This document shows, piece by piece, positions 10,805 to 11,533 of a stretch of DNA of 16,624 nucleotides. Every line of letters starts with the position of its first letter. Within the stretch, counting starts at the first letter, position 1. The stretch lies in UHGV virus genome UHGV-0349119; one strand, written 5' to 3'. The translations under genes and the position numbers were made by a program. The stretch comes from a virus. A model generated the notes under the pieces. The model did not search any database, was not told the origin of the DNA, and saw only the letters and a program-made list of their open reading frames with translations.

Positions 10805-11533
10805 ATGAACCTTGAAGCTTTACCAAAATATTACTCCCCAAAATCTCCAAAATTGAGTGATGACGCACCGGCGACAGGCTCGGGTGGTTTAACAATTACA
10901 GATGTGATGGCTGCGCAGGGGATGGTGCAGTCGAAAGCACCGCTTGGGTTTGCCTTATTCCTGGCAAAAGTTGGTGTTCAGGATCCTCAGTTTGCGATTG
11001 AAGGTCTGCTCAATTACGCGATGGCACTGGATAACCCGACATTGAACAAATTGAGTGAAGAAATCCGGTTACAGATCATCCCTTACCTTGTGAATTTTGC
11101 CTTTGCTGATTATTCCAGGTCTGCGGCAAGTAAGGCTCGCTGTGAGCATTGTGCTGGTACTGGATTTCATAATGTATTGCGCGAGGTGGTGAAACACTCC
11201 AGAAGCGGGGAATCTGTTATCAAGGAAGAGTGGGTGAAGGAACTATGTCAGCATTGTCATGGTAAGGGAGAAGTCAGCACAGCGTGCAGAGGGTGTAAGG
11301 GTAAAGGTATTGTCCTGGATGAAAAAAGGACCCGGCTTCATGGCACGCCTGTTTATAAGATTTGTGGGCGTTGCAATGGAAACCGATTTAGCCGTTTACC
11401 AACCACACTGGCGCGGAATCATGTCCAGAAGCTGGTACCAGACCTGCCGAAGATCTGGGAAAAGTCACTTTCCGCCCGTCCATCACGGCTTATGTGGTGG
11501 GAGATGACTGCTTTGACCAGCGCGATCGCCTGA
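10805..11533 (+). CDS. zinc-finger protein with four CxxCxGxG repeats (DnaJ cysteine-rich-type); possibly antiterminator-Q-like
   Basis: CEHCAGTG, CQHCHGKG, CRGCKGKG and CGRCNGNR repeats seen directly. The Q-like call rests only on the recalled DUF968-then-antiterminator gene order in the Qin prophage. The 3' 40-odd codons overlap DNA-circulation homology in another frame. Confidence 0.55.
   Translation: MNLEALPKYYSPKSPKLSDDAPATGSGGLTITDVMAAQGMVQSKAPLGFALFLAKVGVQDPQFAIEGLLNYAMALDNPTLNKLSEEIRLQIIPYLVNFAFADYSRSAASKARCEHCAGTGFHNVLREVVKHSRSGESVIKEEWVKELCQHCHGKGEVSTACRGCKGKGIVLDEKRTRLHGTPVYKICGRCNGNRFSRLPTTLARNHVQKLVPDLPKIWEKSLSARPSRLMWWEMTALTSAIA

Follow-up and report, generated by a model that had tools for sequence, protein, structure and literature searches.

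A deletion joint between truncated antitermination and baseplate genes in a thrW prophage remnant of Escherichia coli

The locus

The window analysed here, a stretch of 16,624 bases, is 100% identical along its whole length to positions 3841856-3858479 of E. coli TUM10008 (NZ_CP135658.1), and over positions 6688-16624 it also agrees at 100% with E. coli E4 (NZ_CP104516.1). Its right part holds a prophage in which a thrW att core adjoins the integrase gene and the order of genes is collinear with that in SfV/e14-like family members. Two internal deletion joints interrupt this order; the one at 11446/11447, which connects a lambda-Q-type antitermination gene (the fragment is called Q' below) to a Mu-N-like baseplate gene (N'), is the subject of this report. 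The features are as follows.

6685..6733, plus strand: 49-nt copy of the 3' end of the tRNA-Thr gene thrW (att core), the left end of the prophage, identical to the 3' part of thrW in CT02
6748..7866, minus strand: prophage integrase WP_001132557.1, the same protein as in strain 118
9555..9558, no strand: second internal deletion joint, GGTA, with 4 bp of microhomology; about 7.7 kb missing relative to strain 118
10805..11446, plus strand: 3'-truncated lambda-Q-type antitermination gene (ydfT-like), codons 1-214 of 250
11389..11391, plus strand: TAG that closes the N frame upstream, inside Q-derived DNA
11446..11447, no strand: deletion joint placed by three-way alignments, G11446 followed by C11447, blunt, 0 bp of microhomology
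11447..11533, plus strand: end of the hybrid ORF, where N DNA is read out of frame (in the Q frame) for 28 codons up to TGA 11531-11533
11449..12648, plus strand: 5'-truncated Mu-N-like "DNA circularization"/baseplate gene, codons 44-442
12645..16317, plus strand: surviving baseplate genes (P-like, V/gp45-like, gp46, J/gp47, ymfQ), collinear with SfV-like phages

The DNA to the left of the att core belongs to another island, in tandem with the prophage. Three plus-strand genes at 549-4148 resemble a defence cluster: one encodes an Argonaute-associated-nuclease-like protein (PADLOC Aga_Nuclease, 1.4e-58; "pPIWI-associating nuclease domain" in RefSeq), one a 466-aa PD-T7-1-like protein (3.8e-83) and one a DUF4365 protein. 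A VbhA-family antitoxin gene on the minus strand (4409-4636) overlaps a 296-aa hypothetical gene (4623-5513), whose product might be the toxin partner; PADLOC gave no match for either of these two genes. RefSeq places a 112-nt "tRNA-Ser" at 6622-6733, a call that looks spurious: 6685-6733 is the 3' 49 nt of the tRNA-Thr gene thrW, lying between the two tandem islands. Neither ARAGORN nor Rfam reports a complete tRNA gene, or any other RNA gene, in the whole window.

Two truncated genes joined out of frame

The left partner of the joint is an antitermination gene that has lost its 3' end. Its zinc-finger ORF (10805..11533, 242 aa) reads across the joint to 11533 in a frame other than that of N, as a preliminary description of this DNA had it; at the joint, the N frame equals the Q frame + 2. 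Up to 11446/11449 the window agrees in DNA with intact ydfT-type Q genes at about 98% identity, with a range of 92-98% against ydfT alleles; past residue 214, the BLASTP similarity of Q' to the intact 250-aa protein is gone. Pfam PF03589 matches Q' at 141.5 bits (cut-off 26.7), with the second stretch of the match cut, and all four CxxC pairs are kept. C161, C164, C187 and C190 of the window ORF align to the zinc ribbon of Q-lambda (C118, C121, C144, C147). The intact allele is a Q-lambda homologue (phmmer E = 1.5e-37; PDB 7UBM) in which residues 160-250 align to Q-lambda 117-207, so that Q' ends at the equivalent of residue 171 and has no equivalents of residues 172-207. In Q-lambda, this segment lies within a four-helix "body": NusA is contacted by residues 182-197 and the flap-tip helix of RNAP by L202 and T206, and substitutions of contact residues abolish antitermination (PMC9388147). 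The complete C-terminal body helices, with their contacts to NusA and the flap-tip helix, are missing from Q'. Set beside the Q-lambda family (PF03589; PDB 7UBM/7UBN, 4MO1) and ydfT of the K-12 prophage Qin, Q' shares a strong sequence match and the zinc-ribbon cysteines but ends after 214 of 250 residues and bears a 28-residue out-of-frame tail. The DNA normally 3' of Q is deleted as well: N DNA directly follows codon 214, there is no Q-to-lysis intergenic region or late operon behind Q', and no sigma-70-like promoter was found on the plus strand between 9200 and 12800.

The right partner is the 3' part of an N gene. The preliminary description had extended N-like homology about 35 codons upstream of GTG 11494, to a limit at 11392; the homology is in fact shorter. 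When the frame from 11392 is compared by BLASTP with the intact 442-aa N, the match begins at window 11449, 15 codons upstream of the GTG, at N residue 44, and DNA homology to N begins at 11447. The 19 codons ahead of 11449 come from the antiterminator gene, in the wrong frame, and 11392-11446 has no match in N. The TAG at 11389-11391 is indeed in the N frame, and the first ATG, GTG or TTG past it is GTG 11494, which opens an ORF of 384 aa (11494..12648); this TAG is a chance stop and not part of the N gene, because it lies within Q-derived DNA. Over residues 44-442, N' and intact N are identical at 392 of 399 positions (98%, BLASTP). Pfam PF07157 (DNA_circ_N) matches N' at 57.9 bits (cut-off 21) and only over profile positions 39-88 of 88.

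Could N' still be translated from a start of its own? Full-length N homologues (442 aa; SfV/SfI/SfII orf15-type, strain 118, NWU_3 and USMARC-49610) begin 58 codons upstream of the equivalent GTG, and not at the GTG itself, as an N gene that naturally started there would. None of GTG 11494, GTG 11497 and the in-frame starts further on has a Shine-Dalgarno-like sequence ahead of it. N' is without the first 43 codons and its own start codon, and, as read from the sequence, it appears to have no usable translation start. Intact N aligns lengthwise with the solved "DNA circularization protein N" of phage Mu (9KI1), and its first ~150 residues align with baseplate-centrepiece proteins (8FQC, 9RKU). 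Relative to this family (Mu gpN and baseplate centrepieces; PF07157; PDB 9KI1, 8FQC, 9RKU), N' retains 98% identity to SfV-type N 44-442 and is followed by a P-like baseplate gene, the same as in intact relatives; unlike Mu gpN and intact N, it lacks the first 43 residues, and with them half of DNA_circ_N, as well as its start codon and ribosome-binding site. The tail context is one-sided: baseplate genes are present downstream, while the tube and sheath genes are absent upstream, as is the tape-measure gene, which in intact relatives normally stands before N.

Three-way alignments of the Q parent, the N parent and the window resolve the joint to the base. The Q parent reads ...GGTACCAGACCTG up to the joint and ACGGATTATC beyond it; the N parent reads ...AAACCCTATA and then CCGAAGA(C/T)CTGGG; the window reads ...GGTACCAGACCTG followed by CCGAAGATCTGGG. 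The alignments to N and Q homologues that had been proposed for placing the breakpoint therefore put it at 11446/11447, G11446 next to C11447, with no bases common to both parents. In Q, which has 250 codons, this point follows codon 214; in N it falls within codon 43. Because the N frame is offset by +2, no in-frame Q-N fusion is formed. No microhomology was found at this joint in the three-way alignments, and every base on both sides is accounted for, with no IS element or foreign DNA between them. One candidate, a microhomology-mediated join via the 7-mer AGACCTG, was rejected: on its Q side the joint directly adjoins this motif, which in some alleles recurs 5 nt into N; neither copy was lost, and the window allele matches only 6/7.

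The same boundary emerges from a BLAST comparison of window 10700-12700 with 5,426 complete E. coli genomes. In the 3,780 genomes with matches, the matches to query positions 1-747/751 are all Q (ydfT-type) genes, and those to positions 748-2001 are all N genes. On both sides of the joint, homology extends over thousands of E. coli records (E = 0, 97-98% DNA identity), values at which, judged from the alignments, chance is excluded as the source of the homology on either side. In the RefSeq records of E4 and TUM10008, PGAP calls "antitermination protein, incomplete, missing C-terminus" at window 10805-11446 and "DNA circularization protein, incomplete, missing N-terminus" at window 11449-12648. 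The suggestion that the flanking genes were left as fusions or pseudogenes thus holds for both: each is truncated, they are joined out of frame, and both are annotated as incomplete pseudogenes.

The deleted DNA

What lay between the two fragments can be read from E. coli strain 118, where an essentially intact member of this prophage family occupies the tRNA-Thr gene thrW, adjoining proA; the integrase (WP_001132557.1) and baseplate protein (WP_000999513.1) of that prophage are the same proteins, without any difference, as in the window. BLAST aligns the window to this prophage in three collinear blocks (strain 118 positions on the reverse complement of its locus, L008).

Window 6685-9567: strain 118 locus 5755-8637, 99.5% identity
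Window 9555-11449: strain 118 locus 16290-18184, 97.6% identity
Window 11447-12987: strain 118 locus 34461-36001, 98.4% identity

The gap at the Q/N joint amounts to 16,279 bp, a size and content inferred from a relative (97.6-99.5% identical by segment) and not from the true parent. In strain 118 it holds, from the Q side, the 3' end of Q, two hypothetical genes and a methyltransferase fragment; holin, endolysin, RzpD and iss; HNH endonuclease and both terminase subunits, small and large; portal, prohead protease and major capsid; connector, head-closure and tail-terminator proteins; and sheath, tube, tail assembly protein, tape measure and N codons 1-43. These are exactly the modules of the scar that had been proposed from the window alone, where the loss of lysis, packaging, head, sheath, tube and tape-measure genes was suspected.

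The second joint (9555-9558) connects a yfdR-adjacent region to the 3' part of KilA-N, which PGAP annotates as "KilA-N, incomplete, missing N-terminus". The roughly 7.7 kb lost there relative to strain 118 comprises immunity, replication and nin-region genes: yfdQ/P, repressor/cro, ymfL, replication genes, yfdN, a methylase, a LexA-like gene, RusA and the 5' part of KilA-N. With two internal deletions, the morphogenesis, lysis, immunity and replication modules are no longer complete, and the thrW element is a defective prophage remnant. Two other identities for the element were rejected: a tailocin, as sheath and tube genes are lacking, and a phage satellite, as it has neither replication nor packaging genes.

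Relatives and distribution

The N fragment and the baseplate genes have 97-98.5% DNA identity to Shigella phages SfII, SfI, SfV and SfIV (orf15/16), and for the Q fragment the identity is about 98% to phages such as mEp460 and Ayreon and to Stx2c phages. SfI/SfV-type phages integrate at thrW beside proA, and the E. coli prophage e14 is one of their relatives (PMC3636060). With the SfV-like phages (SfV, SfI, SfII, SfIV) the window prophage has in common the thrW att core, the lambdoid early/Q region and the Mu-like tail module (PMC3636060); e14 is, like it, a remnant that ends in ymfQ, tail-fibre genes and pinE. Unlike the SfV-like phages and e14, the window prophage is without lysis, packaging, head, sheath, tube, tape-measure, immunity and replication genes; it has pinE and invertible fibre genes, not the gtr serotype-conversion genes; and its deletion endpoints occur only in 2 of 5,426 complete genomes and in draft or metagenome contigs.

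These two genomes, E4 (USA, poultry) and TUM10008 (Japan), span the joint and are at least 99.98% identical to each other across ~16.7 kb around it. They differ in that E4 has an IS3 insertion after pinE and another island left of the thrW core. That island is CP4-44-like, with Ag43/cbtA, in E4 and of the defence type in TUM10008, which suggests that tandem islands at thrW turn over. By protein-identity look-up, the exact 242-aa hybrid protein is present in 163 blocks of public ENA/NCBI assemblies (gut metagenomes and draft genomes); in contigs that reach beyond the hybrid, gene callers place the 384-aa N' after it, from GTG 11494, and the two predicted ORFs (10805-11533 and 11494-12648; loci L009-L013) overlap by 40 nt. 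The exact joint-spanning 31-mer was not found in JGI metagenome contigs, GTDB species representatives or IMG/VR, and none of 50,697 phage records spans the joint. The scar is real, inherited and confined to a lineage.

Deletions between Q and the tail genes are not peculiar to this lineage. In CT02, at thrW, Q is cut at nt 462 and there is also a terminase-large::N joint; in USMARC-49610, at thrW, Q breaks off at nt 666, where the 3' part of the tape-measure gene takes over. In NWU_3, the annotated tape measure stands directly behind the small terminase gene and the large terminase, head, sheath and tube genes are absent, an apparent terL::tape-measure fusion; the integrase of this copy differs from that of the thrW copies of the family. 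Q-to-tail deletions recur independently in related prophages, and Q was struck three separate times. In LR-46 (NZ_AP027537.1), the match on the N side begins 6 nt earlier than it does elsewhere among the strains, under a gene annotated as a tape-measure protein; this may be another fusion or deletion involving N.

Origin of the joint

How did the two fragments come together? With the breakpoints, frames, deleted content and inheritance of the scar established by the comparisons above, a single illegitimate deletion within an SfV/e14-like thrW prophage very probably made it. One homology-independent, blunt-ended event would have joined Q codon 214 to N codon 43/44, with the loss of about 16.3 kb, in a prophage of the type that combines lambdoid early genes, a Mu-like contractile tail and integration at thrW; it would also have taken the region 3' of Q in which such phages carry the late promoter. 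The data accommodate one-step and successive deletions alike.

The joint could also have arisen by recombination between two prophages, with a chromosomal rearrangement bringing ydfT from a Qin-like or other lambdoid prophage next to the tail genes of a separate SfV/e14-like one. Many unrelated lambdoid phages and prophages, among them Qin, mEp460 and Stx phages, do carry a ydfT-type Q gene, and the identity to strain 118 varies by segment (99.5%, 97.6%, 98.4%). However, mosaic differences in identity are normal in lambdoid phages, and both sides of the joint have their place in the same single prophages: the left side (thrW core, integrase, yfdT/S/R, KilA-N', DUF968, Q) and, in the same orientation, the right side (N, baseplate, fibres, pinE) are collinear with those of strain 118, CT02 and USMARC-49610, all at thrW, and of NWU_3, and strain 118 has the very same integrase and baseplate proteins. 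An origin from two prophages is accordingly very improbable. That the joint is an artefact of assembly, in which 16 kb collapsed, has a negligible chance and is refuted by its presence in independent assemblies: two complete genomes, independent of each other, have it in identical form, and so do many independent contigs from drafts and metagenomes.

A different question is whether the arrangement is a scar at all or works as it stands, as a normal gene overlap in which N is made from GTG 11494, or the hybrid of Q' and its tail is a new protein. Both ORFs (242 aa and 384 aa) are open, automatic gene finders call them, and inheritance of the scar is stable; against these points stand the 58 codons by which all intact homologues exceed the GTG, the DNA_circ_N domain cut at profile position 39, the missing Shine-Dalgarno-like sequence, the loss of the tail partner genes (sheath, tube, tape measure), the origin of the 28-residue Q' tail from out-of-frame N DNA and the PGAP calls of both genes as pseudogenes. 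We regard a functional arrangement as extremely unlikely. It is very unlikely, too, that Q' alone is expressed and competes, in dominant-negative fashion, for the Q-binding sites of lambdoid phages, resident or incoming, that share its Q type. Such a protein would keep the torus-forming segment at the N-terminus, together with the zinc-ribbon arm, without the NusA and flap-tip contacts; if so, the host would have domesticated the scar as an anti-phage or anti-induction factor, and this could account for the stability with which a circulating lineage inherits it. The open ORF and the stable inheritance are the whole of the evidence for this role.

Consequences for the prophage and its family

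A deletion within one prophage, the reading preferred here, would leave neither gene with a working product. Q' is probably non-functional because it lacks the equivalents of Q-lambda 172-207 and the contacts to NusA and the flap-tip helix; N' is probably non-functional because half of its N-terminal domain, the start codon and the ribosome-binding site are lost. With both deletions together, the element would no longer be inducible and could neither lyse the cell nor build particles. Such a disarmed element would do its host no harm, a point that would go some way to account for its stable inheritance in the lineage.

The picture is one of ordinary prophage decay, and both genes are already marked as pseudogenes in RefSeq. 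Cryptic and defective E. coli prophages show the same multiple internal deletions, genes cut at the joints, loss of lysis and immunity functions and a partial tail module; there is no substantive difference between decay by internal deletion as seen in them and the present case, which is one further example. That the fragments stand in public protein collections as seemingly intact genes is mainly an issue of annotation hygiene. The locus is a clean, base-resolved case of a blunt, homology-independent deletion that disarms a prophage, and the several independent Q-to-tail deletions in its thrW relatives fit the accepted picture of prophage decay.
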